From NCBI GenBank assembly GCA_028280965.1, contig JANQKT010000029.1, positions 260 through 64,259 of the forward strand: a DNA stretch of 64,000 nt, read 5' to 3'. The position numbers and the translations under genes were made by a program. Below are positions 7,240 through 31,974 of this stretch, piece by piece. Position 1 is the first letter of the stretch. Every line of letters begins with the position of its first letter. The notes beneath the pieces were generated by a model. That model ran no database searches, had not been told where the DNA came from, and was given only the letters and a program-made list of their open reading frames with translations. This stretch comes from Phycisphaeraceae bacterium. GTDB lineage: Bacteria > Planctomycetota > Phycisphaerae > Phycisphaerales > Phycisphaeraceae.

Positions 7240-7736
7240 GCTTCGTCGCCGCCTTCCACCGATGGGCGTGCCCATGCGCCGCGCTTGCCGCCGGTCTTGC
7301 GGACGAGCTGGATACGCTGGATCGTCATGGCCGGGTCTATCGCCTTGCCCATGTCGATGACGGTGAGGGCGGCGACGCTGGCGGCGGTGAGCGCTTCCAT
7401 CTCGACGCCGGTCTTGTAGCTTGTGCTCGCCTCCGCGCTGATCGCGACGCCATCGTCGGTCAGAGACAACTCGACATTCACCGCGTCCAGCGGCAGCGAG
7501 TGGCAGAGCGGGATGAGTTCGTCGGTGCGCTTGGCGGCCTGGATGCCCGCGAGGCGCGCGACCTGGAGCACCGAGCCCTTCGCGACACGGTCTTCGCGGA
7601 TCGCGGCGAGCAGCTCGGCGCTCGCGCGGACAAAGCCCTCGGCGGCCGCGGTCCGGCGGGTCACCGGCTTGCCGCCGATATCCACCATACTGGGTTGGCC
7701 GGCGGGGTCGAGGTGTGATAGTCGGTCATTCATCAC
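7236..7736 (-). CDS. moaC: Cyclic pyranopterin monophosphate synthase
   Basis: [37 protein letters not shown]. Confidence 0.95.
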
Positions 7737-8971
7737 GCGACATCATAGAACACCCACGGCCCGGGCCCGGTCTCACCCGGCGGGAACTCGACGAAGCCAT
7801 CAACGAGCGCGGCGCCCACGAGGTCGCCCGAGCCACGGGTCGATAGCAACTCCGCCTCGCCATGAACGGTAAGCCTGGCCGGCAGGTAGCGCCAGAGCCC
7901 ATGCGGTTTGGTCGGCGGGTTGGTGAGGTGAACGCGGGGCCGAGGTGCAATGGGCTGAGCAAAGCCCGCGAGCGCACGCGCGACCGGGCCGATGAACAGC
8001 GGCAGCCCCACCGACACCGCGACCGGGTTGCCGGGCAGTGCCAGTACCGGAACGACGCGGCCCGGCGGTGTCACGCCGGGCAGCAGCCCCGCGAGCCCGG
8101 GCTTGCCCGGTCGTATCGGTAGCTTGTGATAAATGATGCGCCCGCCGATGTCGAGCAGGGCGGGTTTGAGGTAGTCGCGGTCGCCCATCGAGACGCCACC
8201 GGTCGTGAGGATCAGGTCGGTGTATTTTGCGGCTTCACGCAGTGTGTCGCCGATCGATTCGCGGTCGTCGCCGAGGTGTTCAGGCTGGGCCGCATCGACC
8301 CACGGCTTGTTCTTCAACCCCGCGAGCAGCGTCGCTGCGTTGCTGTCGCGGATCTGCCAGGGCTCGGGCCGGCTATCAACGGGCAGCAGCTCGTTGCCGG
8401 TGGTGAACAGGCGCACGCGGACCGGGCGATACACCGGTGCCCGTGCGTGTCCAAACGCGGCGAGCGCCGCGCTGACCGTCGGCGTGACCACACATCCCGC
8501 AGGGACGACCGTGTCGCCGGCCGAAGCGTTCTCCCCGCGACGGCGGATGTGCTGGCCGGCGGTAAACCCTAAACCCGGCGGGATCGTGATCCGGCCGTCG
8601 CCCTCCTCGACCTGCTCGCGCGGGATCACACCATCACACCCCGCAGGGACACACGCGCCCGTGCTGATCTTCAGGCAGCCGTCACCCGGCATCGGCGGGG
8701 CGGGCCGGCCGATCAGCACCTCTTGCGTGACCTCAAGCGCCGCGCCGCTCGGCTCGACCTGCTTCGAACGCACCGCGTAGCCGTCCATCGCCGACACATC
8801 ACTCGGCGGGCTATCACGGTCAGCCGTCGCCGACTTGCTGAGCACGCGCCCAAACGCCTCATGTAGATCGCTATGCGTAGCAGCAACCGGCTGCAACGAC
8901 GCCAACAGCTCACACAGCGCCGCATGCGGTGAATCAAACGCGAACCCGGTCGGCGTGTCGCAGACGCTCAT
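7733..8971 (-). CDS. moeA: Molybdopterin molybdenumtransferase
   Basis: [48 protein letters not shown]. Confidence 0.93.
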
Positions 8972-11771: not shown

Positions 11772-11809
<38 letters not shown>

Positions 11810-12311
11810 CGGCTTGGACCCGATCCTGAAAACTGTTGATAGATAAGTGTTTATTTCATCAAACCCTTGCTGTTGTTTGGCTTGGGGCGCCGCTTTGGTC
11901 ACCTGCCGGACACCTGTTGGTCAGGCACTGGTCATCCGCGATGGCTCGTTTTGGTTGTTATTTGGTTGTTGTTTGATGACCTCCGGGGCTATAGAGATAT
12001 GTGGGAACCTTGGTTAATGCCAACTCAACGGCCTTTAACCATAGAGCTTTAGGGCAAAGGGATCTCTATCCTATTCGCAGACGGGGTATCAAGATGATCA
12101 ATTTGTGCCGATGATGGGCTCGCCGTCGTCAGTCAAATCAATTCGAATATTCAAAGTTACCAGGTCGTATGGACTTGACGTCAAAGGTGATGACGCCGCC
12201 GCCTTTACTTGTGTATCGTTGCAACCATTACAATTATACTGATTTGCCCAGGCAGTACGAGGTACGAAGAATCGCGCAGATACTCTACTATATTTGTATT
12301 AATGATCGCAC

Positions 12312-13163
12312 ATGAATACCAAAATCCTCCATAATGTCTTTATTGCGACTGCGAATGAGATCCTTGATGGACGATATAGAGAGTCCATTCAGGATTTGGG
12401 ACTAGTTGGTAGTCTTTCTGGGCACTACGGGTGGCATGATACTCGTCTAGCAGATTTAGACATATGGACACTCATGCCCTCTTTCTCCAACATTGGAGAC
12501 ATTGTTAAGATATTTGCAGATCTTTACAAAACGCTTCTCAAGCACCACTATCCAGATTCAATCATTCTCTCAGAAGCTGTTGACGGTCCCTATAAGCCAT
12601 CGCTCACCTCTGACAGATCTTCTATCGTGTTCCTTCACGTCTTGCCTGACACCCTAGCAACTTACAGGAATCGATCGCCGTTCACTCGGTACGCATGGAG
12701 AAAATATCCAACACTAGTTACACCGGATGTGTTGAAGCGATTGGCCCCAACGCAGCCGCCATCCATGACAGAATTAAGAGCGGGTCGTTGGGGAACGCGA
12801 GACCTAAAAGCTCAAATTCAGAGCAGTCAAGTTGTGTACACGCATTGGCGAGGATCTGATTCTTTTAGTATCAGATATGAAATGGGGACACCCCAGTTCA
12901 GCGAGTTCTGTATCTACTCTATTTTGACAACGGCAAGAAATGCATGCAGATCGCTAGGTCGTGACGAGGGTGATCGTCTTAATAATGAGGAATTCGCAAA
13001 CTTCATACATGCGAGAACAACCTGCACAAGCGTGCTGGAAGCGGTATATGCCAAATCGCAATCACGTCGGCATGGCCACGATACACTCGATGCAAAGGAG
13101 CTCCGAGCTCTTGCGTTAGCGTGGCTTGAGGAGATTTGGACCATTGTTCCAATGCTTGGTTGA
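12312..13163 (+). CDS. Putative nucleotidyltransferase (Pol-beta superfamily) with helical C-terminal domain
   Basis: hGhhGS (LGLVGS) followed by DLD (ADLDIW); rest unrecognised. Confidence 0.55.
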   Translation: MNTKILHNVFIATANEILDGRYRESIQDLGLVGSLSGHYGWHDTRLADLDIWTLMPSFSNIGDIVKIFADLYKTLLKHHYPDSIILSEAVDGPYKPSLTSDRSSIVFLHVLPDTLATYRNRSPFTRYAWRKYPTLVTPDVLKRLAPTQPPSMTELRAGRWGTRDLKAQIQSSQVVYTHWRGSDSFSIRYEMGTPQFSEFCIYSILTTARNACRSLGRDEGDRLNNEEFANFIHARTTCTSVLEAVYAKSQSRRHGHDTLDAKELRALALAWLEEIWTIVPMLG

Positions 13164-13174
13164 GTTGAAATTCT

Positions 13175-13879
13175 ATGAAACGCACATTTAACTACTATAG
13201 GTACTACGATGAACTCTTCGGCAGATTTCGCAACTATGATGATGACATCGCATTGGTGGAAACTCTCGCTGGCCCGATTAAAGAGCGAACGATCGTAGAG
13301 ATTGGAGCTGGCACGGGAAATCATGTGGCTGCATTGATCAAGAAAGGGGCGAATGTCCAAGCCCTTGATACGAATCCGATTGCGTGCCAGATTCTAAGGG
13401 AGCGTTTCTTGCCGGAGATGGATGTTGATGTTATCCAAGCGTGTGGGCTTAACGAGCCGCTGCAAGGAGACCTATTGTGTTGCTTCTTCCCAATCGCTCA
13501 GGAAGCACTTTGTGTTGATTCGCAAGCGCATAGGCTTGAGAGTTTATTCAACAAAGCAGATTCATTCCGCTCTGGAGTGATCTTTGAATGGATTGATATC
13601 GATAAGCATCTTGCAAAGTACGCGGGGCAATCGACCGACCTTGCCAATCCCTCAGAGAGTCTATGTATTAGCTTGACGAGTACTGAGGTCGATCAAGGCG
13701 CTTCTCTTTCCTACAGGGGGCACCTTGGTGGAGTGCCATTCGATTTCTCTGTAACCCTCCAAAGACTCTCGGAGTCAAACCTGCGAGAATTAGCGGGGAG
13801 ACTCGGGTTGCGGGCGAGTGCATTGCCAGTGTCAGCGTCCGGAAGAAAGAAGCTCTGGCACGTCTGCTTAACGCGCTAA
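13175..13879 (+). CDS. Class I SAM-dependent methyltransferase
   Basis: Motif I IVEIGAGTGNH, then ALD; 11 nt after the NTase stop. Confidence 0.8.
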   Translation: MKRTFNYYRYYDELFGRFRNYDDDIALVETLAGPIKERTIVEIGAGTGNHVAALIKKGANVQALDTNPIACQILRERFLPEMDVDVIQACGLNEPLQGDLLCCFFPIAQEALCVDSQAHRLESLFNKADSFRSGVIFEWIDIDKHLAKYAGQSTDLANPSESLCISLTSTEVDQGASLSYRGHLGGVPFDFSVTLQRLSESNLRELAGRLGLRASALPVSASGRKKLWHVCLTR

Positions 13880-14926
13880 ATGCTCAAGGCGACGGGAATA
13901 GGATTGCTCAAACCCCTGCATGTGCGACGCAAGTACATCGGGCGATTCAAGAGCCCGTCGAAAGAGATCAAGCAAATCATCGCACACTTGCTCTGTACTA
14001 CCCTTTTCTGACAAGGCCCATAGCATCGCAGTGTTTCCTCGAGGTGGGCGAGGGGTATCTGAGCGCGGAACAATGCAGTTCAGCAGTGATTGTAACGCCG
14101 TCTTCTCCAATTCCCCGCTATCCACAGCGTCAATCCAGTTTAGATTTGCAATGAGATCGCCGAACTGAAACGACAGGTCGTAAGTGTCACCAGATCCTGC
14201 CTTTATTCGAGTCCATGAGCGCCGAAGAGGCTCTGTGATTGATGACCCAGTATAGAGATGGCATTCTCCGATAGTGTTTTGTAGTCTAGATGTGAATATG
14301 TCCCACCCAGATAACCCGCGGTGGCCAAGTTCATGCTTGAGTAACATTTGCTCTGCCGCTACCAACCATTCTTGCAGCGATCGAGTATTCTCAGTTATCT
14401 GTTTATAAAGAAGTTCAAACACCTCAGCCACGTGGTCAGTGGCAATAGTTATCCTGCCAACTCGTTCATCTGGATAAACGAAGAACTGAAGTGGGTTTGC
14501 GGTAACCAGCGCGGGAGATTTCAGGTAGGAAACGGAAAGGCAGGGATGAATCTCAAAAGACTTCTCGTCAGAGATCCATCCAAATCCATTTGCAACCTGC
14601 CAGAATATGCCTTCTGTTTTGACCCTCGCTGGCGAGTCTAGAGCAATCCGTTGAAGTACTGCGAAGCATTCCTCGTAAGAATGGGGGGCTAACTTTAGGG
14701 CCAGACTCCACTGATCGTGCCGTATGTGGCTCTGCCATTCTTTTGGAGGCTGCTGACAGCGAGGGGGTCTTTCTTGCTCGGATAGTATAGTGCGGCGCCC
14801 TACCGTATGCCAACGGCTAAGTGGAACATCAGGGCTACGAGGAGCCGTGTTAGCCAAATAGCTCCAGTGATCTAATTTAATCAGAGTCTCATGCATTGCG
14901 GACTGATCTACCATTTTACGGGACAA
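13868..14926 (-). CDS. Hypothetical protein with HExxH zinc-peptidase-like motif
   Basis: LLKHELGHRG; start overlaps the upstream SIR2 gene by 19 nt. Confidence 0.6.
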   Translation of the reverse strand: MSRKMVDQSAMHETLIKLDHWSYLANTAPRSPDVPLSRWHTVGRRTILSEQERPPRCQQPPKEWQSHIRHDQWSLALKLAPHSYEECFAVLQRIALDSPARVKTEGIFWQVANGFGWISDEKSFEIHPCLSVSYLKSPALVTANPLQFFVYPDERVGRITIATDHVAEVFELLYKQITENTRSLQEWLVAAEQMLLKHELGHRGLSGWDIFTSRLQNTIGECHLYTGSSITEPLRRSWTRIKAGSGDTYDLSFQFGDLIANLNWIDAVDSGELEKTALQSLLNCIVPRSDTPRPPRGNTAMLWALSEKGSTEQVCDDLLDLFRRALESPDVLASHMQGFEQSYSRRLEHLAR

Positions 14927-17190
14927 ACTCGTGGGTCCTCACCTTCCGTTCCACGGCAGTAATAATCTTGAATCAACAATACACATCTGTCTGCGATATC
15001 TGTTATATCTGCTTCAGAAAGATTCTTTGGTAATCCACGTATCCATTCGTTAAGCTCTCCGACCCGCCGTCCAAAATCTGAATCCGAATAGAGATCAAGG
15101 ATTTCTTCGCGAAACCTGTCTGATATTGATTCAGCATGGCCGCCTGCCTGTGGTACAACGATCACTGGCTTCCCCGCGATTGCAGCAGCCCGAACCTCTT
15201 GCACGGTGCCTTCGAGATTTGAGGGACCCGTAGTTGGTTCATAGCCCTCGCCACCAATCGCAATCAATGCCGCGGTCATCTGCACAAACTCTCTCCAAAG
15301 GTCATCATGTTCCCGCGCCTTAATTCTGACGATGGGGGCATTCACATTGATATATCGCCCACCTCCGCCTTCGCGAAGAACAAATCGCCCGGACAGCGGA
15401 TCAATGCTATAGGCAGCCTCAACTGCCTCACGTCCTACAGTGGGTCCACAGCAAGACGAAACGCGGAAGCTTTGGCTTGCTAAGCGTTTTGCGAGGCCTT
15501 CGGCACATCTCACGGCGATGTCTTTAGCCACTGGAGAATGGCCGCCAAGCGCACGCTTCGCCCCGCGTCCGTCATCTTCAAAGCTGTTTCCGGCAAACCC
15601 CACTATAGGTCTTTGGACGCTCATAACCCCTCTCAAGAGTACGTGCATTAATTGAGAATACGACCGGACGTACTGGGTCATGATGCCGAGTTTCTTGAGT
15701 CTTTCTGCCTGAAGGCTTTGCAGATAGCGGCCAAGTGGATCAGGTTTATATACATCAAGGAACAAGTGTGGCTGATCGCTGCTTGGCTCAAGGGCTTCGC
15801 TTGCAATTAGAGTTCTAATAAATGGATCCCCGAACGAAAGTCCAAGAAAGAGAAATGGGCCAGCGCGATAATCTGCCTTCAATCGATCGAGGATCGCACC
15901 TCGGCGCATCGGGTAATTAGACATCTGTGGCTCAAAGACCGTTGGTGTCCCGGTAGCAAGATCGGCATCTACACCAGCAAGGAAATCTCCATGCAACTTG
16001 AATATGTCACCAGCAGTCCCAGCCGTCAGGGAAAGATCACTTGGCTGTCGTACGATACGGTACAGTTCTTGCGGACAAGTCTCGATAGCCTTCTCAAACA
16101 TGAAGTCATAGTTCGTCGTCCAGATCGAAAACGGCATCAGACGCAGAATTAGACTGTGATAAGCATTGGGGCGTTTTCCATCCCGAAATGAGCTAGAGAA
16201 GAAATTCCTTATCCCTTTGAGGTTCTCCTGATCCGTGGCACCAAGAGTCACAGCATCTAACACACCTAACTCACTAATGAAAGGTGACACCCCCGTCTCA
16301 TCTAGAATAGGGCGATACTGCTGAAGCCAGTCTCCATAACCCGAAGGAATCGAAACGCCAGCTCCACATAGTATTGAAAACCGGCGTTTCAACATCGGAT
16401 CAAGTGTTGTACGAAATAATGATTCGTCGCTACTAGGTAGATTCAGAGGTTGTACGCGTCGTTCTATTGCCTGCAGCGGCTTAAGAGAATCAATTGTGTA
16501 ATCTGCATTGCTCTGAGCAGATGGGGCTGGTTCCTTGGCATAGCTGGCGTGATAATAAGTCCACTGCCCAGATAAAGTTACTTCTTGCTTGACGGAACAA
16601 AAGGTCGCATAATCGACATCAGAATCCCCCACATATAGTAAATCGAACGTACCCGGGGACTTCGTTGAAAATCGAGCCAATGTCTCAATCAGTGTACGTG
16701 GATTGGGTTTCTTGATTCCTGATAGAGAATCATTGCCAACCACATGGTCGATTAGATGCCCTATCCGATGCCTGTCCAGGAACTCGCGGATTTCAGCCTC
16801 AGTCCTAAGCGACAGGATTGCGGTCTTATACCCGAGAGTTCTGGCGCATTCGATGAGCAGTTCGATACCGGTCTGTTTTGATGCGCGTTGGGTTAACCCC
16901 GTTGAGATTGAAGCTCTAAGAAACTGAAGTATCGTCTCCTGTGTTCCAGGCGTAAGCCCATTCTCAACCCAGAACCCCAAATCTTCTACGAGTCGCTCGG
17001 GCCCTCGTAGATTGAGGTATTGCCACGCAGCGGTAATTTTGGGTACCTCATCTGAAGCGGCCGCTTTTCTAATTAAGTCGAGAACCGCTTCTCTGGTATC
17101 AGAGATCGGGCCGTCAAAATCGAATACTGCTACTCGAAGCAAAGTTGCCCCTTTAGGCTCGGCATATTGCTCTATTGAGAAATATGCCAA
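14908..17190 (-). CDS. HAD phosphatase-SIR2-SLOG fusion (ThsA-like core with an added N-terminal HAD domain)
   Basis: HAD: FDFDGPISDT, KKPNP, YVGDSDVD. SIR2: LCGAGVS, WTTNYD, FKLHG, FLGLSFGDP. SLOG: VGFAGN, LIAIGG, GTVQEV..A...GKPVIVVPQAGG. TTG start. Confidence 0.8.
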   Translation of the reverse strand: MAYFSIEQYAEPKGATLLRVAVFDFDGPISDTREAVLDLIRKAAASDEVPKITAAWQYLNLRGPERLVEDLGFWVENGLTPGTQETILQFLRASISTGLTQRASKQTGIELLIECARTLGYKTAILSLRTEAEIREFLDRHRIGHLIDHVVGNDSLSGIKKPNPRTLIETLARFSTKSPGTFDLLYVGDSDVDYATFCSVKQEVTLSGQWTYYHASYAKEPAPSAQSNADYTIDSLKPLQAIERRVQPLNLPSSDESLFRTTLDPMLKRRFSILCGAGVSIPSGYGDWLQQYRPILDETGVSPFISELGVLDAVTLGATDQENLKGIRNFFSSSFRDGKRPNAYHSLILRLMPFSIWTTNYDFMFEKAIETCPQELYRIVRQPSDLSLTAGTAGDIFKLHGDFLAGVDADLATGTPTVFEPQMSNYPMRRGAILDRLKADYRAGPFLFLGLSFGDPFIRTLIASEALEPSSDQPHLFLDVYKPDPLGRYLQSLQAERLKKLGIMTQYVRSYSQLMHVLLRGVMSVQRPIVGFAGNSFEDDGRGAKRALGGHSPVAKDIAVRCAEGLAKRLASQSFRVSSCCGPTVGREAVEAAYSIDPLSGRFVLREGGGGRYINVNAPIVRIKAREHDDLWREFVQMTAALIAIGGEGYEPTTGPSNLEGTVQEVRAAAIAGKPVIVVPQAGGHAESISDRFREEILDLYSDSDFGRRVGELNEWIRGLPKNLSEADITDIADRCVLLIQDYYCRGTEGEDPRVCPVKW

Positions 17191-17604
17191 TTCTGCGAAT
17201 TACTACTCGGAGTATCCTACCTCACTCTGTCTCACCTTCACAACCTCGTCTCAAGCAGGAATTGATCAGCGGAATTGATCTACCCTCACAGTTCATGCCA
17301 AGTTCTTCAACCCACCACGCCTACGGGGCCGATAGCCCAGCGCCGAGTCCGGACGGATCGTGTTGTACTGCCGTGGGTGGCGAATAAACTGGAGATTGCA
17401 GGTTCGAATACTGCGCTCGCCAATCAAGTGACTTGCCTCACAAAAGTACTCGCATTGGTTGAACATAGTGACAGCATAGGGCGTGTGAAAGCTAAACATA
17501 AACACCACTATGGGGTGTAGGACACGGTACTCCCTGCACCTCTTTTTAGTGCTGGTCCTGCAAAAATCTATTTGCTTAAAATAAGAGAGTTAATCCAAGT
17601 GGTT

Positions 17605-20193
17605 TTAGTCCCAAAGAGTATCGCCAGGTTCAGCGTCGAGCCAATCCTTCAGATCAATTGATACCAAGTCGGCATAGATCGGCCGCTTGTAGCTGCCGTG
17701 GTTGCTGATGATGGCGTCATGGCGGTAGATCGCGAGCAACCGGCCCGATTGGGTGTCGAAATGCAGATCGGTCAGGATGCCCTTGAACACCGGGCCTGGT
17801 GTTGCTTCGAGGGTTTGCTTGTTGATCCGCCAAAGCTGGCCCATCCTGTCGCAGGCCACCAGGTGACCGTTGCAGTGCTCCATCCCCGCGATCATGTCGA
17901 GCGGGGCGGGCGTCCATCGCCTGTCTCGCGCCCCGACGTACCCCTTGTAGATCATGGTTGTGCGGTGCTTGGAGACATGGTTAAGCTCGTACAGGTCGCT
18001 GGCTTCAGTCATCACATACGAGCCATCGGAGCTGATAAACACCTCACGGGCGTTTCGCGAAGCGGCCATCTTACGCATCCTGGCGTGCCCGGGAGACACC
18101 AGGCTGATATAGCCAAAGGACTGGTACTCGCCGACAAACATCAGCGAACCGTTCGGGACAACGGTGACTTTAGATCTCTGAGTGACACCGACTTGATTGA
18201 TCTTCTTGAGCGGGTTACCGGCATACTCGTGCATGTTTGTCCATTGGTTGCTCCCATCGGTGATGAACACCCGCGGGTTATTCCTGGTGCCGGCCGCTGC
18301 GATATCGAAGGGGTCGATCCCGGTCGGGTGCTCGATGACTTCCGAGAACCCGCCGGTGGTGTCGATCCGCAGGATCTTTCCGCCTGGGTGGTCTTTGTTG
18401 TGCTCGAACGCGGTGGGTGCGCAGGCCAGCCAGAGCACATCGTCGGCCGGGCCCAGGCTCAGTCGGTGTGTCCCGAAGGGTAGGCGGCTGGTCTGCTCTT
18501 GGATCGCTAGGTTCTGGGGGTTGATCCGGTAGACGCGGCCTGCCCCGGCATCAAGCAGGTACACCGATTTGCCGTCGGCGCTGTAATCGATGTCGGTCAG
18601 GTCACTGCGCAGCGGCAGACTGTGGGCGATGTTTGGATGCCCCGTCGCCCCGCCACGCACAGGCTCAGGCAGATTCGGACGTGGCACGATCTGGTCGTCC
18701 GCAACCAACTCGCTGAGGTCGACCCGTACGATCCGCCCGGATGTGTCATCCTCAACCAGCTTCCCGCGGTCGGTCAGTGTGGGGTTGTCCAGCCAGCGTG
18801 CATAAACAACCGGCGTCCCCTGGGCGGGCCGGGGGTCAACGAACACGCCCTGGTGGACCACATCGCTGAGCACGTCCAGCTCCGGCCAACGATAGAGCTT
18901 GATCTGCCCCCTGCAGAACACGGCCAAGAGACCGAGCTCCCGACTGACCACCGCGCCATAATTCTGGGGCAGCGTGTGCTGGGTATAGCGGCGCATCATC
19001 CCGGCGGGGTAGTTGCCACGGGCATAGAGCTCTCCGCTTTGCGCAAGGACGAAACGCCCGTCATCGATAATGGTGTAGTCGCTGTACGCGTTGCCGGAAA
19101 CACCCTCGGGGGACAACTGCGATTCGGGCAGTTCGGTGCGCGCCATCATCCCCCAGCCATCTTGGCGGGCCTTGTCGGCGGACACCGTTTCAACAATGTC
19201 TAGCGAGGCCGGGTCGAGCCTGAACCGGTTGCCGGATCCAGGATGCACCGCGATGACCGATCGGCCGTCCTCGGAAAGCCCCCACTGCCGGGGGTTGCCG
19301 AGCCGGTCAACATCCGCCGCCACCTGTGCAAAGTCGGGCGTCTGTGACGCACGCATCTGCCAAGGGACCCGGGTCTGCTGCTCGCTGGGCCGGGTCGTGA
19401 TTTCGCTATGTTTGGGCAGGAAAACATAAACCGCTTCACCGCCACAGCCGAGCAGCATCCTTGTCTGGCGTTTGTCTTCCGGATACGGGATCTCTTGCTT
19501 GAGTCCGCGCTCAACACTCTTGAACGGCAGCTCTTTTAAGAGCTCGGAGATGTCTGCTGTCAGATCAATCCAGACCTCCCGGCCGAACCGCCCGGAGCCC
19601 CAATAGGCCCAGACCACATCGACTCCGCTGTCGGGTTGGCCCAGCAGGCGGTCGGCGCGGTCCGCCTGGTCCCGGCTCCACCGGCGTCCGGGCCCCAGCG
19701 GCGCGAGGTCTTTGGCCCGGACCTTGGTGAGCAGGCTGCCCCCCTCGGTCAGCTTCAGGTGAACGGGCCCGCCGGGCGTATCAAGCAGCAGCACAACATT
19801 TCCGTTGCCGCGGATCTGCGTGTCAGGCAGGTGCTTCTTGATCTGGTCGCTGCTGCAATGGATCACGCCACGGTCTTTCAACTGCGCGTTGCAGTAGTCG
19901 GTCAGGTCCTCGCACCGGTCGCCGCTCACAAACCCCGCCCAGCGCACCGTGACGCCCTCGGCGGTAAGCCCTTGGGACAGATCGGTCTGAGGCCGGACCG
20001 TTGCCTGGTCCTGAGCCATCGTCGGCCAGGCACCCAACAGCAGGGCGATGCAGCACCAGGGCAGCAGGGTGGCAAGCAGCCTCGGGTTTGTAGAGCAACC
20101 GCCGCGATTCAACGATGGGTGAAGCCGCCGAGGCGTTGTTCGGCGGCTGCAGCTGAGCAAGGTAATGCCAGTAGCTTTGAGGGTAATACGCAT
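17605..20193 (-). CDS. Large secreted beta-propeller (YVTN/WD40-like) protein
   Basis: Hydrophobic signal-like segment, repeated SADGK/SSDGS blade motifs; AAGGA RBS before the ATG at 20193; paralog of the neighbouring gene. Confidence 0.7.
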   Translation of the reverse strand: MRITLKATGITLLSCSRRTTPRRLHPSLNRGGCSTNPRLLATLLPWCCIALLLGAWPTMAQDQATVRPQTDLSQGLTAEGVTVRWAGFVSGDRCEDLTDYCNAQLKDRGVIHCSSDQIKKHLPDTQIRGNGNVVLLLDTPGGPVHLKLTEGGSLLTKVRAKDLAPLGPGRRWSRDQADRADRLLGQPDSGVDVVWAYWGSGRFGREVWIDLTADISELLKELPFKSVERGLKQEIPYPEDKRQTRMLLGCGGEAVYVFLPKHSEITTRPSEQQTRVPWQMRASQTPDFAQVAADVDRLGNPRQWGLSEDGRSVIAVHPGSGNRFRLDPASLDIVETVSADKARQDGWGMMARTELPESQLSPEGVSGNAYSDYTIIDDGRFVLAQSGELYARGNYPAGMMRRYTQHTLPQNYGAVVSRELGLLAVFCRGQIKLYRWPELDVLSDVVHQGVFVDPRPAQGTPVVYARWLDNPTLTDRGKLVEDDTSGRIVRVDLSELVADDQIVPRPNLPEPVRGGATGHPNIAHSLPLRSDLTDIDYSADGKSVYLLDAGAGRVYRINPQNLAIQEQTSRLPFGTHRLSLGPADDVLWLACAPTAFEHNKDHPGGKILRIDTTGGFSEVIEHPTGIDPFDIAAAGTRNNPRVFITDGSNQWTNMHEYAGNPLKKINQVGVTQRSKVTVVPNGSLMFVGEYQSFGYISLVSPGHARMRKMAASRNAREVFISSDGSYVMTEASDLYELNHVSKHRTTMIYKGYVGARDRRWTPAPLDMIAGMEHCNGHLVACDRMGQLWRINKQTLEATPGPVFKGILTDLHFDTQSGRLLAIYRHDAIISNHGSYKRPIYADLVSIDLKDWLDAEPGDTLWD

Positions 20194-20227
20194 GGTTACA
20201 TTCCTTGACCGTGATCGATTGAACAGG

Positions 20228-22417
20228 TCACGGGCCGGGTTGATCGATCTTGTGGTCTTGTTTGAGTGCTGACAGATCGATCGCGATGACATCCGCGAAA
20301 GACGGGCCGGTGAACCGGTCGTGCTTCGAGCTTTCGAGGAATCGGTCAGTCCAGTACAGGCCGTAGGCGTAGTTCGATTCAGGGTGGTAGACCAGATCCG
20401 TCACAATCCCGCCCAGTTCTGCTTGTGCGGTGACCCGGCACGCCGGGACCTCGAAAAGCACCATCGCTCCCTTGTCGGTGGAGGCGGCGAGCAGGGGGGG
20501 CACGCCGGTCATCGCGGTGACCTGCCCGACACTGCCCACCAGCTTGCCGTACTGATCGATGGTGTCCGCGAACTGGATGACCCCGCCGCCTCGCGCGGAG
20601 ACGTAGTGTCCGCTGTGAGAGAAGTACAGCCCGCCGAACAGGTAGGTCCCGCCGGAGAGCAGCTTGCCTTTCTTGACCTCGCCCGAATCGGTCCCGTGCA
20701 CGCGCATCAAGGTGCCGCCATCGGTGAAGAGGGTTTCGCCGTCCGGGCCGAACTGGAGCAGGCTGAAGCCCCGGCCACGCTCAAAAAATTTGAACTGGTT
20801 GCTGCCCTGTTCCGACCGCAGGATCAGCCAGTTGTCGTGGTCGTCGTGCTTGCCGGCGACGTACAGGTTCTCGTGCTTGTCAAAGGTTGCAAGGTGCGGT
20901 GAGACGGGGCAGCGCTGGGCCTGCCCCACCTGCTCAAGTGTCTTGGGGTCAAGCCAGATCAGCAGGCCCGTGATAGGTTTGTCGATATGACGCGGCAGCT
21001 GATCCGGCGCGCAGAGCACGACGATGCGCTCTGTCTTCGGGCAGATCGCGATGTCGTGTGACCCGTAAGGCAGCTTCTCCGATGACGATTGGATCTCGAG
21101 CGTGCCCCGGTCCAGCCGGTGCACCCTGCCCTCGTCCGCGTCGAAAACCAGCAGCGCCTGGCCGTCCGCGCTGAGGCACAGCCCTTTGAGCTCGCTGCGT
21201 AGAGCAAGGCGCGCGCTAACGGTTGGCAGGCCGGTAGCGTCGCCGTGCACCGGCGCGGGAACCGGGGGAGCGAGGCGGGCTTCTTCTTCGGAAAGAAGCT
21301 GGCTCAGGTCAACGCGCACGAGGCGGTCGGACGGCTTGAGCGTGTTCTCGTCAGCGATGCGCTGGCGGGCAAAGAACACGCCTGAGTCCCCCGCGGCCTG
21401 CGGGTCTTCCAGGTCCATGGCCAGCGGCACGTGCCGCATCGGTTCCAGCCCCGGCCAACGGTGCAGCTCGACCCCGCCTTGGACACACAAGGCCAGCACC
21501 CCCAGTTCCCTGCTGGCGATGGCACCTTTGTTCTCATGGATGGTTTTGCCGTAGTTCCGCAGGCCGGTGAGTGGGTGGTTGCTCACTCGCAGCAGCGCGC
21601 CGCGGTAGCTCACGACAAATCGCTCGTCGTCGATCAGTGAAAAGCCGCCTGTGCCCGGGTTCCCTTCGATTGGGAAGCTCTCGCCTCGTGCGCCGGTTTC
21701 GTTGTCGGCGAAGTAGCGGGCGCCGAACCCGCCGTGCTGCGTGCTCCCGCTCAGGACGACCCGCCCGCCCGCGGTGGTCGCGTAAACATCGTCGGACGGG
21801 TACCACCTGTCGAAACGATGCATGCCGATGCGGTAGACCTCGCCGCGCGCCGTATCGTTCAGGACGGCCCAGTGGCCGTTATCCGATCGTATGGCCCCGC
21901 TGCCCGACATCGCGGCGATATTGCCGTCGGCCAGGCGCTGCAGCCCGACGATATCGGTCTGGATCGTGCTGGCCGGTTCGAGGGGCTCAAGCGATGCGAG
22001 GTCGAGCCACTGGAGCACCCCGCGCTGATTGTAGGACTCGCGGTGTTCCTGGTACCCGCGCGGGGCGGACCCGGTGAGGATGCGCTTGCCGTCCGCCGAG
22101 AAAATGAAGCAGCGCAGTCCGTCGGCGAGTTTGGGCGACCGGGCTACGATCTCTAGGTCGCTCAGCCGTACCTTGACCAAGCGCTGCTTCCGGGGCTGAA
22201 GCACGATCAAGTGCTCGGTGTCGGGTGTCAGTTGGAAATGTGTGAAATCATGGTCCAGGCCTTCGATCACATCGATGCCGGCGTGCCCGGCGTGTTGGGG
22301 TGGTACGGCGTCGTTGTCTGAGTCTGCGTACCGAGGCAGGCCGAGCAGGGCCGCCGCTATCAAGACAGCGAGCCTCCGTGCGTAGGGATTTAAGACAAGG
22401 CGAGTCAGGCCAGGCAT
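20228..22417 (-). CDS. Secreted beta-propeller protein, paralog of 17605-20193
   Basis: Signal peptide; FSADGK, LSADGQ, FGPDGE blades; shared blocks such as RLVRVDLSQL / RIVRVDLSEL. Confidence 0.72.
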   Translation of the reverse strand: MPGLTRLVLNPYARRLAVLIAAALLGLPRYADSDNDAVPPQHAGHAGIDVIEGLDHDFTHFQLTPDTEHLIVLQPRKQRLVKVRLSDLEIVARSPKLADGLRCFIFSADGKRILTGSAPRGYQEHRESYNQRGVLQWLDLASLEPLEPASTIQTDIVGLQRLADGNIAAMSGSGAIRSDNGHWAVLNDTARGEVYRIGMHRFDRWYPSDDVYATTAGGRVVLSGSTQHGGFGARYFADNETGARGESFPIEGNPGTGGFSLIDDERFVVSYRGALLRVSNHPLTGLRNYGKTIHENKGAIASRELGVLALCVQGGVELHRWPGLEPMRHVPLAMDLEDPQAAGDSGVFFARQRIADENTLKPSDRLVRVDLSQLLSEEEARLAPPVPAPVHGDATGLPTVSARLALRSELKGLCLSADGQALLVFDADEGRVHRLDRGTLEIQSSSEKLPYGSHDIAICPKTERIVVLCAPDQLPRHIDKPITGLLIWLDPKTLEQVGQAQRCPVSPHLATFDKHENLYVAGKHDDHDNWLILRSEQGSNQFKFFERGRGFSLLQFGPDGETLFTDGGTLMRVHGTDSGEVKKGKLLSGGTYLFGGLYFSHSGHYVSARGGGVIQFADTIDQYGKLVGSVGQVTAMTGVPPLLAASTDKGAMVLFEVPACRVTAQAELGGIVTDLVYHPESNYAYGLYWTDRFLESSKHDRFTGPSFADVIAIDLSALKQDHKIDQPGP

Positions 22418-22451
22418 AGTCCGGGTCCTATGGGGTGTGGTCGTTGAGGCG

Positions 22452-24056
22452 TTACGGGTCCAGAGGCGTGCGTCCGATCGCACGCCCCGTCGGGATGCCG
22501 TCGGCGATCAACGCCAGGTGCATCTGACCCAGCAGCACTCCGCACCGGATATCGTCGGGCAACCCGTTCAACGACTCGATATCGCTCATGGCCAGCCGCC
22601 TGCCCGAAAGGATGACTGCGTCGCGCGCCGTCGCCAGCCTGCTTTCAGGGTCCGTGTCGCGCGTTTCATGCGACGCGATGATGGGGTCAAAGGCGCTGGC
22701 GTCTACGGATTGCTTCAGGCGCATAGCGGACTGCGTGATCGCGTACGGTGGGGGATACAGCTCGGTCAGATTGTGTTGCTGCTGTATCAGCAGGACCTGT
22801 TCATACGCCCTGTCCGCAAGTTCGACCTGCCCCTGCTCGTAGTGGCACATCCCTAGCAGCAGCCACTGTGCCGCAGCCTGGTCGGGTTCAACAGACGATT
22901 CGGGCATAACCATGAACTGCTCCACGGTTAGCTGCGCATCTTCCGCATAACCGTGGGCGAGGAGCATCAAAAAGCCATCGCGGAAAAATTGCTCGAAGGT
23001 GCTTTCGTCGCCTGACTGGAGGACGAGGACGCCTTGTTCGTCCAGGTAGCGCAGGACGGCTTGCTGCTCAAGTTCTTGTTCCCCGTGACGCCTCCACTCC
23101 TGCGCGAGTTCTAGGAGGTTCTTCGGGCTTAAGGCCGGCAGTGTATTCATGCTGTCGAGGGCCCGGCGTGCTTCCCGGTCTTTCCCCGCGCAGCGCAAGG
23201 CCCGGGCGTAGCTGATCCCAAGTGCGGTCAGGCGGGTGGGCTCCCATGCCGTGGTGCTGACGTCGGGGGTCGGGGGCGAGCCCGACCGGGTTCCCTCGTC
23301 CTCAAGTACCGGGCCACGCCTCTCCGGGATCTGCTTTCTGTCACGCTCCTTCAGAATCGCGAACCCCTTATCCAGTTCCCCCGCAAGCAGATACCCCTCG
23401 GCGATGTGCAGCTGGCTAATACCACGGAATAAGTTGCTGACCCGATACCCCTCGGCGAAGTCCCTGGTCCAGTGTTTAACGGCCTGCTCGTCGCCCAGGT
23501 AGGCATACAGCCCTGCGGTCTCGCTCCAGAGATGCATACGCTCCGTGTCCTGATCCGACAGGGACCTGTAATTATCGCTCAGCAGGCCCGAAGGTTTTGT
23601 CCCGCGTTTCGGATCAAGGTTCTCTTTTACCGCGCGGAGCAGCTCGCTCTCCATGCCGACGGTCTGGTGGATGAGGGTCCGAAGCAGGGGTAGGTCGACC
23701 GCGCCGTCCCGTAGGGCCAGCCGAGCCGCTTCATTCGCGCCCTCGGTATCGCCGGCCACGTATCGCAGCCAGGACAAATCTGTATAAATCTCCGAGAGAA
23801 GCATACGCCGCCGCTGCTTGTCGCTCTTGCTGGTCATCTGCTCGGGCGACATGCCCTTGAGCGCAGTGCTCAGTTCGGATTCGAGTGATGAGAGCCTGCT
23901 TTGTACCCGCGCATCGGGCTTGCGCAACGTGTACCCGGCACAACAGCCGGCGGTGCGTGTAGGGGCATGCTCAGGCGTGGATGAGCTTTCCCTCCCGCAA
24001 CCACCGAGAAGCAGCGTAATCAGAAACAAGACGATTACCGGTTGCGATCTGCTCAT
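22452..24056 (-). CDS. TPR-like lipoprotein
   Basis: Lipobox LLGGC; helical repeats (WLLLGMCHYEQGQVELADRAYEQVL). Confidence 0.68.
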   Translation of the reverse strand: MSRSQPVIVLFLITLLLGGCGRESSSTPEHAPTRTAGCCAGYTLRKPDARVQSRLSSLESELSTALKGMSPEQMTSKSDKQRRRMLLSEIYTDLSWLRYVAGDTEGANEAARLALRDGAVDLPLLRTLIHQTVGMESELLRAVKENLDPKRGTKPSGLLSDNYRSLSDQDTERMHLWSETAGLYAYLGDEQAVKHWTRDFAEGYRVSNLFRGISQLHIAEGYLLAGELDKGFAILKERDRKQIPERRGPVLEDEGTRSGSPPTPDVSTTAWEPTRLTALGISYARALRCAGKDREARRALDSMNTLPALSPKNLLELAQEWRRHGEQELEQQAVLRYLDEQGVLVLQSGDESTFEQFFRDGFLMLLAHGYAEDAQLTVEQFMVMPESSVEPDQAAAQWLLLGMCHYEQGQVELADRAYEQVLLIQQQHNLTELYPPPYAITQSAMRLKQSVDASAFDPIIASHETRDTDPESRLATARDAVILSGRRLAMSDIESLNGLPDDIRCGVLLGQMHLALIADGIPTGRAIGRTPLDP

Positions 24057-26501: not shown

Positions 26502-26574
<73 letters not shown>

Positions 26575-26603
26575 GTTGCGGACATAAGCCGCTGCGATCC
26601 ATG

Positions 26604-26632
26604 ATTTTACACCGACGAGGTTTCGTGGGCAA
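26604..26632 (-). promoter_or_regulatory. Promoter of the intact tRNA-Gly
   Basis: TTGCCC-N17-(TG)TAAAAT. Confidence 0.7.
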
Positions 26633-26773
26633 GCGCCTCCGAAATGGAGATGACAACCATGTTTCCAACCAAACGGGCGCCCGGGGGCGTTTCGGTGGCA
26701 CCCCGAGCGACGATCGCTTTTATGTGACCGGTAGGTGACCAATGGTGACTCATGCTCGTTGCATAGCGTCCTA

Positions 26774-27688: not shown

Positions 27689-30600
27689 ATGGAACATAAC
27701 GTGACGAAATATGACGCGACATCGTATGACCCGGCATGGTCTACATCAATCAATTCACGAAATGCCGTGTTATGGCTTGGCAGCAACGCACCATCTCTCT
27801 TAGCCGACAACGAGGCATTGTCAGACCTACTCGAATTACCATGGCAGGCGATATTTGCTGTTAACCCATTAACACCTGTAATGGAAGCTCGAGCCGCACT
27901 ACGCGGCAAAGGTCGGGGGTCAAAACTCCGTATCATTACAGAAGACCCTGCATTTATCGAAATTGGGAATGAATCTGCTCCGGTCTACTGCTTACATGGA
28001 TTGGAGAGTGCGCCTGGCTCCGTTGGGTTAAGCGCACTTCAAAGCCAGCGTCGCTATTTGAATATGCTTACTAAGGTGCCTGCGCATCAATTTCTTTTTT
28101 GCATTGGATTAGATGGCGACAAAGACTTAAAAAAAGTTTCGGAAGGTATTGAATCATCCGCCTCGCCCGGCAAAGCAATCATCTCGTCGGAATTAAGGCC
28201 TCTACTCGATGACCGCGACCTACGAATCCCAGAAGTTATCCTTTGGAATCGAGATGAATCGGAGCTTATATCTAGCTTACGACAGCAAATAATTACAACA
28301 CAAACCGGGGATGCCTATCAGCTACGCTTATTTTCGGATTCTGGCTACATATCTGTCAATTTGTCTGACTGTGAACAACCAGGAAACTTAGTTCTAGACA
28401 AGTACTCACTCATAACAGAGTCAGACTTATCTGTGGCAGGGGAGCCGAGTTCGCAAGATCTGGAAGACTTCCTTACCGACCCCACCAACTCCTGGAAGCC
28501 GTACTCGCTGGGTATACCATGCAAACGGGGGCGAGAGTATGAAGATAACTTGCTCAAACTATTGAGAAAAGCTCTAGAAAAGGGGAAACAGGCTTCCGCA
28601 ACTGCATATATCGAAGTTGAAAGTGGATCTGGAAGTACAACTCTTATTAGGCAAATCAGCCACAGTGCCGCACTTGAAGGTTATCCGGTTCTTGTTGCTC
28701 ACCAGGACTTACGCAGCTTCGATACTCGCCAACTTGATTCGTTCATCAGACTAGCAGAGAAAAAAATAAAAGCGCAAGCCAACCGCATCCTACCCTGGCT
28801 AATAGTCTACGATTCGCCAAACCTCATGGGGGACTTTAGCACTATTTGCCAACTTGGGCGTAAACTCGCAAGGCCAGTAATCATTCTTGTTGCATTGCCG
28901 CACACACTTAATTCCTATAAATCCGATTTGTGGCAAGCAAGTCCTCTAGGACAAGAGTTGCGTAATCGAGTTACCTTGAGCGAAGCCGTAGATATAGGCG
29001 AGCATTTCTCGAAAATATTGCGCCCTGAGCAAAGAAGGAATAAAGAAGAGTGGGCACAGTTTATTGCTGAGGTTAGTAGAAATGGACCGCATGGCACTGA
29101 AAGCTTGTTTTGGATAGCGTTGCGCTTTTGGTTATTGCGGACAAAAGGTGCTAACGAGCCGCTTAAAAATTGGCTTGCCCGATTATTTGACGAAGCTGTT
29201 GGTGATAATCAATTGCTCCGAGCATCTTTACTTGAGATTGCTGCAGTATCCAACTACAGACTAGCGCTTCCACTTTGCTTAATATCTAGAGAGGCTCGCC
29301 CAGTTGTTTTAGATATGGCGAATAACAAATCTAACCCAATATCCTTGGAGAGATTTCGTGGTTCAAAATCTTATGAAATTGGATTCAGTCACCCGCTCAT
29401 CGGCGCCGAGTTAATTCGAATTGCGGAAAACAGTCACGAATCACTAGCGAGTATTGACAAAAATCATTCTTACTCAATTCACGACATAGAGCTTACGCTG
29501 TTCCAGAGACTACTGTCCCGAAAAGAAGCTGGAAAGAATGAATGCAGCGACTTCATTACAGAACTATCTTCTACCGCATTGCGAGTTGATCAGTTTGAAT
29601 TGCCCCGCAACTATGAAGAGAGAGATCGAATAGTTCAGATACTTGAGTCTGTACCCGACCCTGTCTTTGACTCAAATCCTATCTTCTTACATCGTCTTGC
29701 CATCGCAAGACGACACTTGGCTGCAAAACCTCCACATAGTGAACTGTGGTGGACAAAGCCAGAAAATGTTCGAGAACAATTCGAACTGGCCGAATCACAT
29801 ATTAAAGTTGCAATCAACATTACCACCTTAGCAGACGACCCAATCGAGCCACTCGACAATCTCTTTACGACATTGGGAAGAATATATGAGCAATGGTCAG
29901 AATTTGAGTCTTCAGTCGGCGACAAAGATCGTTCCTTAGCCTACGAAGAGGCTGCGGAAAGGGCATATTTATCAGCAGAGCAGTTCAATCCTGACAACAT
30001 AAAGCTTATAAATACACTAGCAAACCGATATCTCAAGCTAGCTCAAAAGAATCCCGGAACACCGGATTCTGTTCGAATGCTTGTTGACGCAATCTCACTA
30101 TATGGACGTGTTTTGGCAACAGAATCTCGCGACAATCGCGATGAAACACTCCAGCATTACGCCTTGGCTCTAAACTTGCTAAAGGATGGTTCAGGCAAAG
30201 CATTATTAGACGATATGATGGCCCGTGGTGAGGAATCTGCATTCATAGCTGCGGCCCAGATACGGTATGCAGAGTCAAACAATGACCCGAGTGAACTTCG
30301 AGGCGTTATTGCATTACTTCAAAAGATCGAAGGCGCATCGAAATCGTGGAGATCTTACGAACTACTGTACACGGTTCTGTCGACGCTCGAGCCATTTAAC
30401 TTTAATCGTCGCCTTGAACTTCTAGATTCGCTTTCTACCACAGAATTCGCATGGCCACTGCAAAAGCTCTTAGAGCGAACGATTCTGTCACATCAAACCG
30501 GTGATCACGCTACTGCAGAAAAACTATATCGTACCATTCGCAAGTCACTCCAGACACGCAATATTCGCTTGTCGATACCTGAAGAAATGAAATTCCTGAT

Positions 30601-31647: not shown

Positions 31648-31776
31648 TAGCTGATCATTAGGTGACCAATGGCTGGCCGACATGTAACCAAAACAGCTTT
31701 GCAAGCACATGCAAATGAAGGGCTTATTGTTTTAACTATATCTATATCAAGAGTTTTCGCAGCTGCGTATTAGCCG

Positions 31777-31814
<38 letters not shown>

Positions 31815-31843
31815 GTGAACGGCCTAAGCCGCTGCGACGCATG

Positions 31844-31872
31844 ATCTTACACGGGGCGGATTCCGTGGGCAA
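31844..31872 (-). promoter_or_regulatory. tRNA-Gly-type promoter, copy 3 (points into cassette B)
   Basis: TTGCCC-N17-(TG)TAAGAT. Confidence 0.65.
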
Positions 31873-31974
31873 GCGGCCACGGAACGGCGACGACAACCAC
31901 GTTTCTTTGAAGACCTTTGCGATCATCAAGGCGCAGGGGGAGTACTGATGGCAACAGCTTTGGAACTTGGGGAT

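Follow-up and report, generated by a model that had tools for sequence, protein, structure and literature searches.

The window analysed here, a stretch of 64,000 nucleotides from a Phycisphaeraceae bacterium (assembly GCA_028280965.1, contig JANQKT010000029.1, positions 260 to 64,259 of the forward strand), contains four closely packed genes, which we call p1 to p4. Their products are predicted to be a nucleotidyltransferase (NTase) of the DNA polymerase beta (Pol-beta) fold, a methyltransferase, an orphan protein with a single HELGH motif, and a protein in which a HAD phosphatase domain is fused to SIR2 and SLOG domains (Table 1). A first-pass annotation, made by a model from the DNA sequence alone, had proposed that the four genes form an NAD-depleting defence system, in which the NTase and the methyltransferase make a modified nucleotide signal that is sensed by the SLOG domain and reset by the HAD domain. 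All positions given below are those of the window unless another locus is named.

A foreign island that carries four genes

As the first-pass annotation had described, the four open reading frames (ORFs) lie close together as two convergent pairs, p1 followed by p2 on one strand and p4 followed by p3 on the other. The gap between p1 and p2 is 11 nt, p4 and p3 overlap by 19 nt (or are separated by 11 nt if p3 starts at the ATG at 14896), and p2 and p3 share 12 nt at their 3' ends. The GC content of p1 to p4 is 0.47-0.50, and at third codon positions (GC3) it is 0.44-0.52, compared with 0.77-0.79 for the flanking host genes (moaA and a gene of 895 aa); the surrounding stretch has a GC content of 0.46-0.52, compared with ∼0.64 for the genome.

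The left border of this low-GC stretch is a truncated tRNA-Gly gene, whose 38 nt match the intact tRNA-Gly gene (26502-26574) exactly from its start to the anticodon loop. The tRNA half falls inside a repeat of 97-108 nt that has other copies at 26537-26633 and 31772-31879, and the 38-mer finds conserved sites in every related genome compared. Thus, the description of the genes as tRNA-anchored holds in so far as a tRNA half marks the border, and no intact tRNA was found adjoining the four genes. The island was not found in any of 30 related genomes, and homology to a same-genus genome returns at ∼17570 with 91% identity. The island is of foreign origin and was acquired horizontally.

An independent Logan assembly, from a coral metagenome run, contains a single contig that spans 11785-19000, so that the order of the genes cannot be ascribed to chimeric assembly. 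That contig does not extend across the left junction, where the sequence passes through the tRNA repeat, and in the source contig this junction could be a repeat-mediated join. The Logan assembly breaks at the tRNA repeat, with a depth of 11 in the moaA/mobA flank and of 17.7 in the island. Near the right end of the island, at 17388-17412, there is a tRNA-like 3' fragment (GCAGGTTCGAATACTGCGCTCGCCA) that is not of tRNA-Gly origin and that may be a relic attachment site. Scans with Rfam and for promoters and terminators across the island gave nothing informative.

Table 1. Coordinates of the features at the locus and of subtilase genes found beside homologous gene pairs
Feature	Position	Strand	Size or residues	Description
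p1	12312-13163	+	283 aa	Predicted Pol-beta-fold nucleotidyltransferase of a family without a name
p2	13175-13879	+	234 aa	Probable class I S-adenosylmethionine (SAM)-dependent methyltransferase
p3	13868-14926	-	352 aa	Orphan protein with one HELGH motif
p4	14908-17190	-	760 aa	HAD phosphatase, SIR2, and SLOG domains
p4, HAD domain	16456-17136	-	residues ∼19-245	Subfamily IA, phosphoglycolate-phosphatase-like
p4, SIR2 domain	15616-16425	-	residues ∼256-525	ThsA-type
p4, SLOG domain	14911-15615	-	residues ∼526-760	STALD-like, predicted nucleotide sensor
Truncated tRNA-Gly(CCC)	11772-11809	+	5' half, through the anticodon loop	Left border of the low-GC island
Low-GC island with p1 to p4	11810-17570 (about)			Delimited by composition and by absence from relatives
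Subtilase genes in other loci	L001 4944-7939; L003 657-4241; L004 923-3927; L009; L012; L017			Beside p1-p4-like pairs

The ThsA-like protein p4 and its conserved partner p1

The proposal that p4 is a HAD domain fused to a SIR2-SLOG protein like ThsA, the effector of type I Thoeris, was borne out by matches in Pfam, PADLOC, and the Protein Data Bank (PDB). The Pfam models HAD_2 and SIR2_2 matched residues 22-194 (E 1e-14) and 356-498 (E 5e-12), respectively, a weak match to STALD/SLOG at residues 559-704 (E 2e-3) was under the Pfam cut-off, and the PADLOC ThsA1 model matched residues 256-699 (E 1e-28). When the single p4 sequence was compared with the PDB, ThsA structures were the best matches (7uxt at 9e-18; also 8wc0, 6lhx, and 8bto), followed by KomC and DSR2. 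A profile of the p4 family, built from 19 members, matched ThsA (7uxt and 6lhx) with an E value of ∼1e-41, collinearly across the SIR2 and SLOG domains, and the same profile matched phosphoglycolate-phosphatase-type HAD enzymes in the PDB with an E value of ∼1e-20.

The HAD motifs D24xD26, K161, and G188-D-S-D-x-D193 are invariant among 19 aligned homologues, as are the SIR2 motifs GAGxS and TTNYD (N360) in the family alignment. The catalytic His of SIR2 is retained in p4 of the window (KLHGDF; H400-G-D), and in this alignment it is replaced by Asn in all 18 of the homologues that are partnered by an NTase. The possibility that Asn at this position marks a dead enzyme was rejected, since a group of plain ThsA proteins also has Asn there, and one of these (P0040, locus L058, 4001-6068) adjoins a TIR gene in the ordinary layout of Thoeris. 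Judged from these alignments, the change from His to Asn is a natural ThsA variant.

To compare the sensor domains, the published contacts of BcThsA with 3' cyclic ADP-ribose (3'cADPR), the signal in type I Thoeris, were mapped onto the p4 family by means of an alignment that is remote. The SLOG domain of p4 keeps the equivalents of BcThsA G289, G399, and E403, and other pocket positions are changed (S290 to Asn, Thr, or Asp; L326 to Pro; Q359 to Val or Arg; K388 variable). From this mapping, the domain looks like a working nucleotide pocket of changed specificity. Because the residues that differ include those that contact the adenine (L326, Q359, and K388), the ligand is probably not 3'cADPR.

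The last residue is Trp in 18 of the 19 proteins of the p4 family (14911-14913 in the window). A role for this Trp as a docking residue was considered and became less compelling, as its presence in most loci is partly explained by a TGG-TGA junction that makes the overlapping GTG start codon of the p1-like gene; p4 of the window keeps the terminal Trp without an overlap with the start of p1.

There was no match to p1 in Pfam, NCBIfam, PADLOC, or PHROGs. A search of 5.8 billion proteins recovered 60 homologues of p1, and when 1.84 billion representatives were searched exhaustively with a profile, 105 clusters belonged to its family, which is small. An AlphaFold2 (AF2) model of p1, derived from 53 sequences, had a predicted local distance difference test (pLDDT) score of 93 and a predicted template-modelling (pTM) score of 0.91. 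When this model was compared with the PDB using Foldseek, the best match was AAD(9)/AadA (E 3.6e-4), and NF45/NF90, CdnD, and cGAS followed. Within the family, variation is absent or slight at residues G33, S36, D48, and D50 and slight at D82, in the manner of a G/S...DxD signature, and distant members match the Pfam family NTP_transf_2 (PF01909). Based on the modelled fold and these remote sequence links, p1 is a predicted Pol-beta nucleotidyltransferase, in agreement with the first-pass annotation.

The closest structural matches of p1 are the aminoglycoside nucleotidyltransferases (ANT) ANT(9) and ANT(3'')(9) AadA (PDB 6sxj, 7uy4, and 5g4a), with which it shares an N-terminal Pol-beta NTase domain containing GS...DxD and a C-terminal helical domain. 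It differs from them in sequence (identity 10-14%, with template-modelling (TM) scores of 0.42-0.47), in an extra beta-hairpin, in invariant motifs of its own (GPYKP, RWAWRKY, and ARNxxRxLG), and in a genetic context that is not one of antibiotic resistance. In the host genome p1 is the sole member of its family, no member was found on plasmids, and a search of a viral structure library with p1 returned weak matches to phage NTases only. P0193, a distant relative of p1, carries a histidine phosphatase domain as a fusion.

Each of the p4 homologues that were inspected first (∼30% identity to p4) had a gene of ∼290 aa directly downstream. The products of these genes carry the motifs GPYKP and RWAWRKY, which are those of p1, and they are homologous to p1 and not to p3; p3 was rejected as the conserved downstream partner, its identity to them being only 15-21%. 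Members of the p1 family were then used to collect loci from both species genomes and metagenomes, and these loci were scored with family hidden Markov models. A HAD-SIR2-SLOG gene was immediately upstream of the p1-like gene, and co-directional with it, in 28 of 32 informative distinct loci, where the stop and start codons of the two genes mostly overlap (TGGTGA/TGATG). These loci come from Pseudomonadota, Acidobacteriota, and Actinomycetota (named hosts include Bradyrhizobium, a Burkholderiaceae metagenome-assembled genome (MAG), Terriglobia, and Actinomycetota), and since the genome of the window belongs to none of these groups the pairing extends to at least four phyla. Pairwise identities of the p1-like and p4-like proteins are correlated across 153 locus pairs (r = 0.96). 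In the window, p1 and p4 are both equidistant outliers, with 22-31% identity to their relatives, which argues that they are cognate partners from a deep branch. In an Alphaproteobacteria MAG (L008, 5768-8857), the HAD-SIR2-SLOG and NTase genes are each split in two frames, and this may reflect joint decay or sequencing errors.

Homologues of p2 and p3 were absent from all of the other loci examined (37 related loci for p2; the 28 other paired loci for both). Co-occurrence across genomes, which had been suggested as a check on the four-gene proposal, was therefore seen for the NTase and for neither the methyltransferase nor the HExxH protein. Based on this comparison of sequences, the conserved unit is two genes, p1 and p4, and not four; a horizontally mobile two-gene module is the best reading. 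If the p1-p2 segment were inverted once, the four genes would become co-directional, in the order p4-p3-p1-p2.

The identity of p2 as a methyltransferase stands on its SAM-binding motif, which is the sole region in which it resembles other proteins. Its match to Methyltransf_25 (E 2.8e-5, 25.2 bits) is below the Pfam cut-off of 27, the PADLOC model mad2 (5.7e-8) matches the SAM motif only, and the PDB matches are to class I methyltransferases across residues 25-89. It has no recognisable motif IV of DNA or nucleotide methyltransferases, no homologue was found on plasmids, and a search of 400 genomes of the phylum returned motif-level matches only. By sequence, p2 is a probable class I SAM-dependent methyltransferase.

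The p3 protein contains its HELGH motif once, at residue 198, as the first-pass annotation had noted, and the spacing of this motif is unlike HExxHxxGxxH of the metzincins. The protein matched only itself among 5.8 billion proteins, had no credible match in the 400 genomes of the phylum, and had no match in the PDB or Pfam; a single-sequence AF2 model (pLDDT 38) was unusable, which leaves the motif as the part of the earlier assignment that stands. Kinship of p3 with the p1 family was rejected (hhalign probability 0.2), as was kinship with a 437-aa protein encoded upstream of some homologues, to which it has no relation. The composition of p3 is like that of the other three genes, and it is very unlikely that an open frame of 352 codons at 49% GC arose by chance.

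The four-gene model, in which the NTase and methyltransferase make a base-modified nucleotide, the SLOG domain senses it, the HAD domain resets it, and the HExxH protein is a fourth component, gains from the close spacing of p2 behind p1 and of p3 with p4 (p3 is within 11 nt of p4 or overlaps it), from the foreign composition that is common to all four genes, and from the precedent of modified nucleotides as immune signals in Kongming and, as N6-methyl-dAMP (m6dAMP), in Metis. We hold it to be very unlikely, since homologues of p2 and p3 occur in 0 of 28 other paired loci, p3 is an orphan and p2 shares no more than a SAM motif and has no motif IV, and the pair evidently works elsewhere without them. 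Nothing was found to support a signal made jointly by the NTase and the methyltransferase. The genes p2 and p3 may be lineage-specific add-ons outside the conserved system.

A candidate signalling module in which an NTase stands in place of TIR

Type I Thoeris consists of the SIR2-SLOG effector ThsA and the TIR protein ThsB, which are linked by the signal 3'cADPR, and a survey of December 2025 still defined every Thoeris type by TIR. The p1-p4 pair resembles Thoeris in its two-gene organisation, in the collinearity of p4 with ThsA across SIR2 and SLOG, in the presence of GAGxS, TTNYD, and HGD, and in the equivalents of G289, G399, and E403. It differs in having a Pol-beta NTase as the partner, in the extra N-terminal HAD domain of the effector, and in the lack of a TIR or ThsB protein in both locus and genome. 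No TIR domain was matched in p1 to p4 with Pfam or PADLOC, and no match to TIR_2 (PF13676), ThsB_TIR (PF08937), or TIR (PF01582) was found in the entire host genome, which is 100% complete, so that the absence of TIR noted for the locus holds for the whole genome. Two further carrier genomes had no match to TIR_2 or ThsB_TIR, the sole TIR models searched there.

In a tree of the SIR2 and SLOG region, the HAD-bearing proteins form a clade (support 100/100) that is apart from ordinary ThsA. This clade contains p4 of the window, on a long branch whose exact position is unsettled, and a protein, P0009 (L056, 266-3325, and also L057), whose gene has a TIR_2 gene directly upstream and no NTase. P0009 was recovered from two independent samples and is of the His type, like p4 of the window. 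It accounts for the TIR neighbour in 1 of 29 loci of the clade, so that proximity to TIR, which would have told against a distinct system had it been routine, is an exception here. That either TIR or the NTase serves as the partner within one ThsA subclade is, in our view, the best reason to regard the NTase as equivalent in function to ThsB. The effector may be exchangeable as well, as is hinted by locus L027 (329-2192), in which an orphan p1-like NTase gene is divergent beside a gene for a 222-aa protein like the TIR effectors of CAP12 or Pycsar type (PF10137, 4e-17; PADLOC PDC-S35). No description of TIR with a HAD-extended ThsA, as in P0009, was found in the literature searched.

We infer for this pair a role in defence, synthesis of a signal by the NTase, a function of the HAD domain on that signal, and NADase activity of p4. 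Upon infection, p1 would make a nucleotide small molecule, possibly phosphorylated, or would nucleotidylylate or otherwise edit one, thereby taking the place that is held by ThsB in Thoeris. Binding of this nucleotide ligand to the SLOG domain of p4 would switch on the SIR2 NADase, and the predicted outcome is a collapse of NAD+ and abortive infection. The fused HAD domain would strip a phosphomonoester from the ligand, keeping its basal level below the threshold for firing and resetting the switch, in a manner comparable with MisB. Since HAD enzymes require a phosphomonoester, the ligand would have to carry one, unlike 3'cADPR. At the locus in the window, the pair would have been split into two convergent operons, with p2 gained after p1 and p3 after p4, and these two proteins may tune the system. 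In our judgement there is about an even chance that the pair is a two-gene anti-phage module of signal and effector, like Thoeris or the cyclic oligonucleotide-based anti-phage signalling systems (CBASS), with signalling by an NTase and clearance by HAD.

Resetting by HAD, as the first-pass annotation had proposed, has a precedent by analogy in Metis, where MisB, a HAD protein of the same Pfam family (HAD_2, PF13419), dephosphorylates basal m6dAMP, the activator of the NADase MisA, and so prevents autoimmunity (bioRxiv 10.1101/2025.11.05.686725). MisB is dispensable for Metis defence itself, and MisA is a calcineurin-like phosphoesterase that converts NAD+ into NMN and AMP, with an activator that comes from degraded host DNA (bioRxiv 10.1101/2025.11.05.686725). 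What p4 has in common with Metis is a predicted NAD+-depleting effector and a PF13419 HAD domain with invariant catalytic Asp residues, the likeness to MisB being one of Pfam family only. Metis differs in that MisA is not a SIR2 protein, MisB is a separate protein, and neither an NTase nor a SLOG domain is part of the system; a Pfam scan of p1 to p4 found no PF00149 domain of the MisA type and no membrane effector of the MisC type.

The Metis precedent of a HAD_2 phosphatase with an NADase also lends itself to an account in which the SLOG domain directly detects a phosphorylated nucleotide derived from infection (for example, a product of genome degradation), HAD clears its basal level, and the NTase has a secondary part in editing or recycling the ligand. 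Retention of HAD with either a TIR or an NTase partner fits such direct sensing, as does the requirement of HAD for a phosphomonoester that is missing from 3'cADPR. We consider it decidedly unlikely, because it leaves unexplained an NTase (or TIR) that is almost constantly co-encoded and that co-evolves with the effector, and because SLOG domains of the ThsA type are known to sense signals made by a partner.

When compared with CBASS, the p1-p4 pair is similar in placing an NTase of the Pol-beta superfamily beside an effector with a nucleotide-sensing domain, and CdnD and cGAS are among the fold matches of p1. By sequence p1 is not one of the cGAS/DncV-like nucleotidyltransferases (CD-NTases), as it lacks a Pfam or PADLOC match, and by structure it resembles them weakly, with the superfamily core in common. 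The predicted sensor of p4 is SLOG/STALD and not a cyclic-oligonucleotide sensor of the SAVED, STING, or Cap4/5 type, and no Cap2, Cap3, or HORMA accessory genes were seen. To our knowledge, all CBASS systems depend on CD-NTases and have other sensor domains. A HAD-bearing SLOG-SIR2 protein as a CBASS effector was not found in the literature searched.

Kongming, which comprises the deaminase KomA, the HAM1 protein KomB, and the SIR2 protein KomC and which uses dITP as its signal, also relies on a SIR2 NADase that responds to a nucleotide made without TIR, as is predicted for p4. KomC matches the SIR2 domain of p4 (E 8e-6), but p4 is far closer to ThsA, KomC is without SLOG and HAD domains, and no deaminase or HAM1 domain is present in p1 to p4.

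The NTase could also be a covalent, antitoxin-like regulator that nucleotidylylates p4, or sequesters or modifies its ligand, and so holds off the NADase until infection. The logic would be like that of MntA-HepT or other NTase toxin-antitoxin modules, and translational coupling of the p1 and p4 homologues by overlapping stop and start codons in most loci, their strict co-variation, a p1 fold that is nearest to enzymes that adenylylate the hydroxyl groups of an acceptor, and the conserved C-terminal Trp of p4 can all be cited for it. NTase toxin-antitoxin modules (MntA-HepT, AbiEi/AbiEii, and MenT) are likewise mobile and made up of two genes, with a Pol-beta NTase of ∼280-300 aa tightly coupled to its partner. 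These modules differ from the p1-p4 pair in that it has no HEPN or AbiEi partner, the partner is instead a predicted NADase with a ligand sensor, and the NTases of those families are outside the top fold matches of p1. Moreover, the SLOG residues that bind free nucleotide in ThsA are kept, TIR, a known signal maker, stands in for the NTase in one member of the clade, the genes for p1 and p4 in the window belong to separate operons on opposite strands, an arrangement ill suited to a strict antitoxin ratio, and the codon for the terminal Trp is partly due to the overlapping GTG start. A covalent regulator is therefore, in our view, unlikely.

Several observations weigh against a signalling module built around the NTase. 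The TM scores of p1 with CdnD and cGAS are only 0.22-0.29, which places it nearer to aminoglycoside NTases than to CD-NTases, and on the strength of the model p1 may modify a signal rather than synthesise it. The TIR-partnered P0009 also has a HAD domain, with a similar SLOG pocket, which ties HAD to the effector or its ligand and not specifically to the NTase. Across the family the column of BcThsA R371 is Arg, and p4 of the window has Trp there and an Arg at the next position. No HAD-SIR2-SLOG gene accompanies four of the p1-like genes, which are orphans, and the pair in the window is not an operon, its genes being on opposite strands with two unique genes between them. Finally, many homologous loci are flanked by housekeeping genes, and the defence-island signal described below, while real, is moderate.

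In full-text searches of PMC and bioRxiv, no description was found of the HAD-SIR2-SLOG architecture or of an NTase as a partner for ThsA, and the locus suggests a form of anti-phage immunity by nucleotide signals that has yet to be described. If the proposed signalling module is correct, sensor and effector modules would have been exchanged between classes of signal-making enzyme, a view that the TIR-partnered sister strengthens, and a nucleotide messenger would await discovery. The fused HAD domain would make it possible to test signal clearance that is built into an effector, a principle demonstrated only recently, for Metis. The p1 family is small and without annotation, so that current tools would call an orphan ThsA alone and miss the system. 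A bolder and more tentative proposal, which we think possible and would not yet favour, is that the p1 family is a third kind of immune signal-maker, ANT-like, which replaced TIR for one clade of ThsA through a phosphorylated messenger, a re-tuned SLOG domain, and policing by HAD, and which may pair with other NADase effectors, as in L027; a new family of signalling defences would then link Thoeris with CBASS.

Neighbours of homologous loci and a second cassette

The genes that surround the pair were surveyed in 18 homologous loci (135 ORFs, picked by length, so that genes may be missed). Defence-type neighbours were found in ∼7 of the 18 loci, which is an upper estimate, as the PDC-S15 and Pycsar-type ORFs are included without a traced locus. 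One such neighbour is an S8 subtilase (PADLOC model "subtilase", 1e-50; IetS-like), which is beside the pair in 5-6 loci of different lineages (Table 1). Its companion is a protein of ∼437 aa without a family or, in L003, a metallo-beta-lactamase protein with a likeness to effectors of LmuA, DRT, and Avs. The matches to LmuA, DRT, Avs, and PDC-M48B were rejected as separate neighbours and counted once, because they all come from this one protein. The subtilase and its companion may serve as an accessory module or may make up a candidate system of their own.

The PDC-S15 models match one neighbouring ORF, the Pycsar-type matches (PycTIR/TIR-effector, and PycC) are to a single ORF each, and an MmeI-type restriction enzyme is encoded in L040. 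A class III nucleotide cyclase (PycC-like, 9e-24) is encoded just downstream of the p1-like gene in L041 (7001-9202), L004 (∼7510-8721), and L017 (7274-8479), and in L041 the cyclase is present and the HAD-SIR2-SLOG gene is missing. The cyclase was rejected as a functional partner, since its position is probably a matter of lineage synteny and the PycC match one of general class III cyclase homology; the PycC-type match of the survey may be one of these cyclases.

These surroundings also bear on whether the pair has a role outside immunity, in a pathway of nucleotide or cofactor salvage or modification in which the phosphatase, NTase, sirtuin-like, and LOG-like domains act one after another on a metabolite. 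Metabolic genes surround several of the loci, HAD with an NTase is a common biosynthetic pairing, and most family members have Asn for the sirtuin catalytic His. On the other hand, the distribution of the pair is patchy, rare, and cross-phylum, with a foreign island in the window; ThsA effectors are the closest homologues and a TIR partner occurs within the clade; the Asn-type SIR2 is also found in ordinary TIR-linked ThsA; and subtilase, PDC, and Pycsar-type neighbours are present in several loci. We regard a purely metabolic role as highly improbable.

A second low-GC cassette is present in the window at 27689-31647, 10 kb away from the first, and encodes a 1047-aa protein with iSirtuin and nSTAND_NTPase7 (E 1.6e-85), followed by a 291-aa protein without a family. 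Copies of the tRNA-Gly region flank the cassette at 26537-26665 and 31777-31905, and this iSirtuin-STAND cassette is a candidate second defence cassette.

Immediately to the right of the island, at 17605-22483, are two large neighbouring high-GC genes of 895 and 751 aa that match no Pfam family. The two translated products are alike over long C-terminal stretches and so look paralogous, and the 895-aa gene is 91% identical to its counterpart in a same-genus genome.

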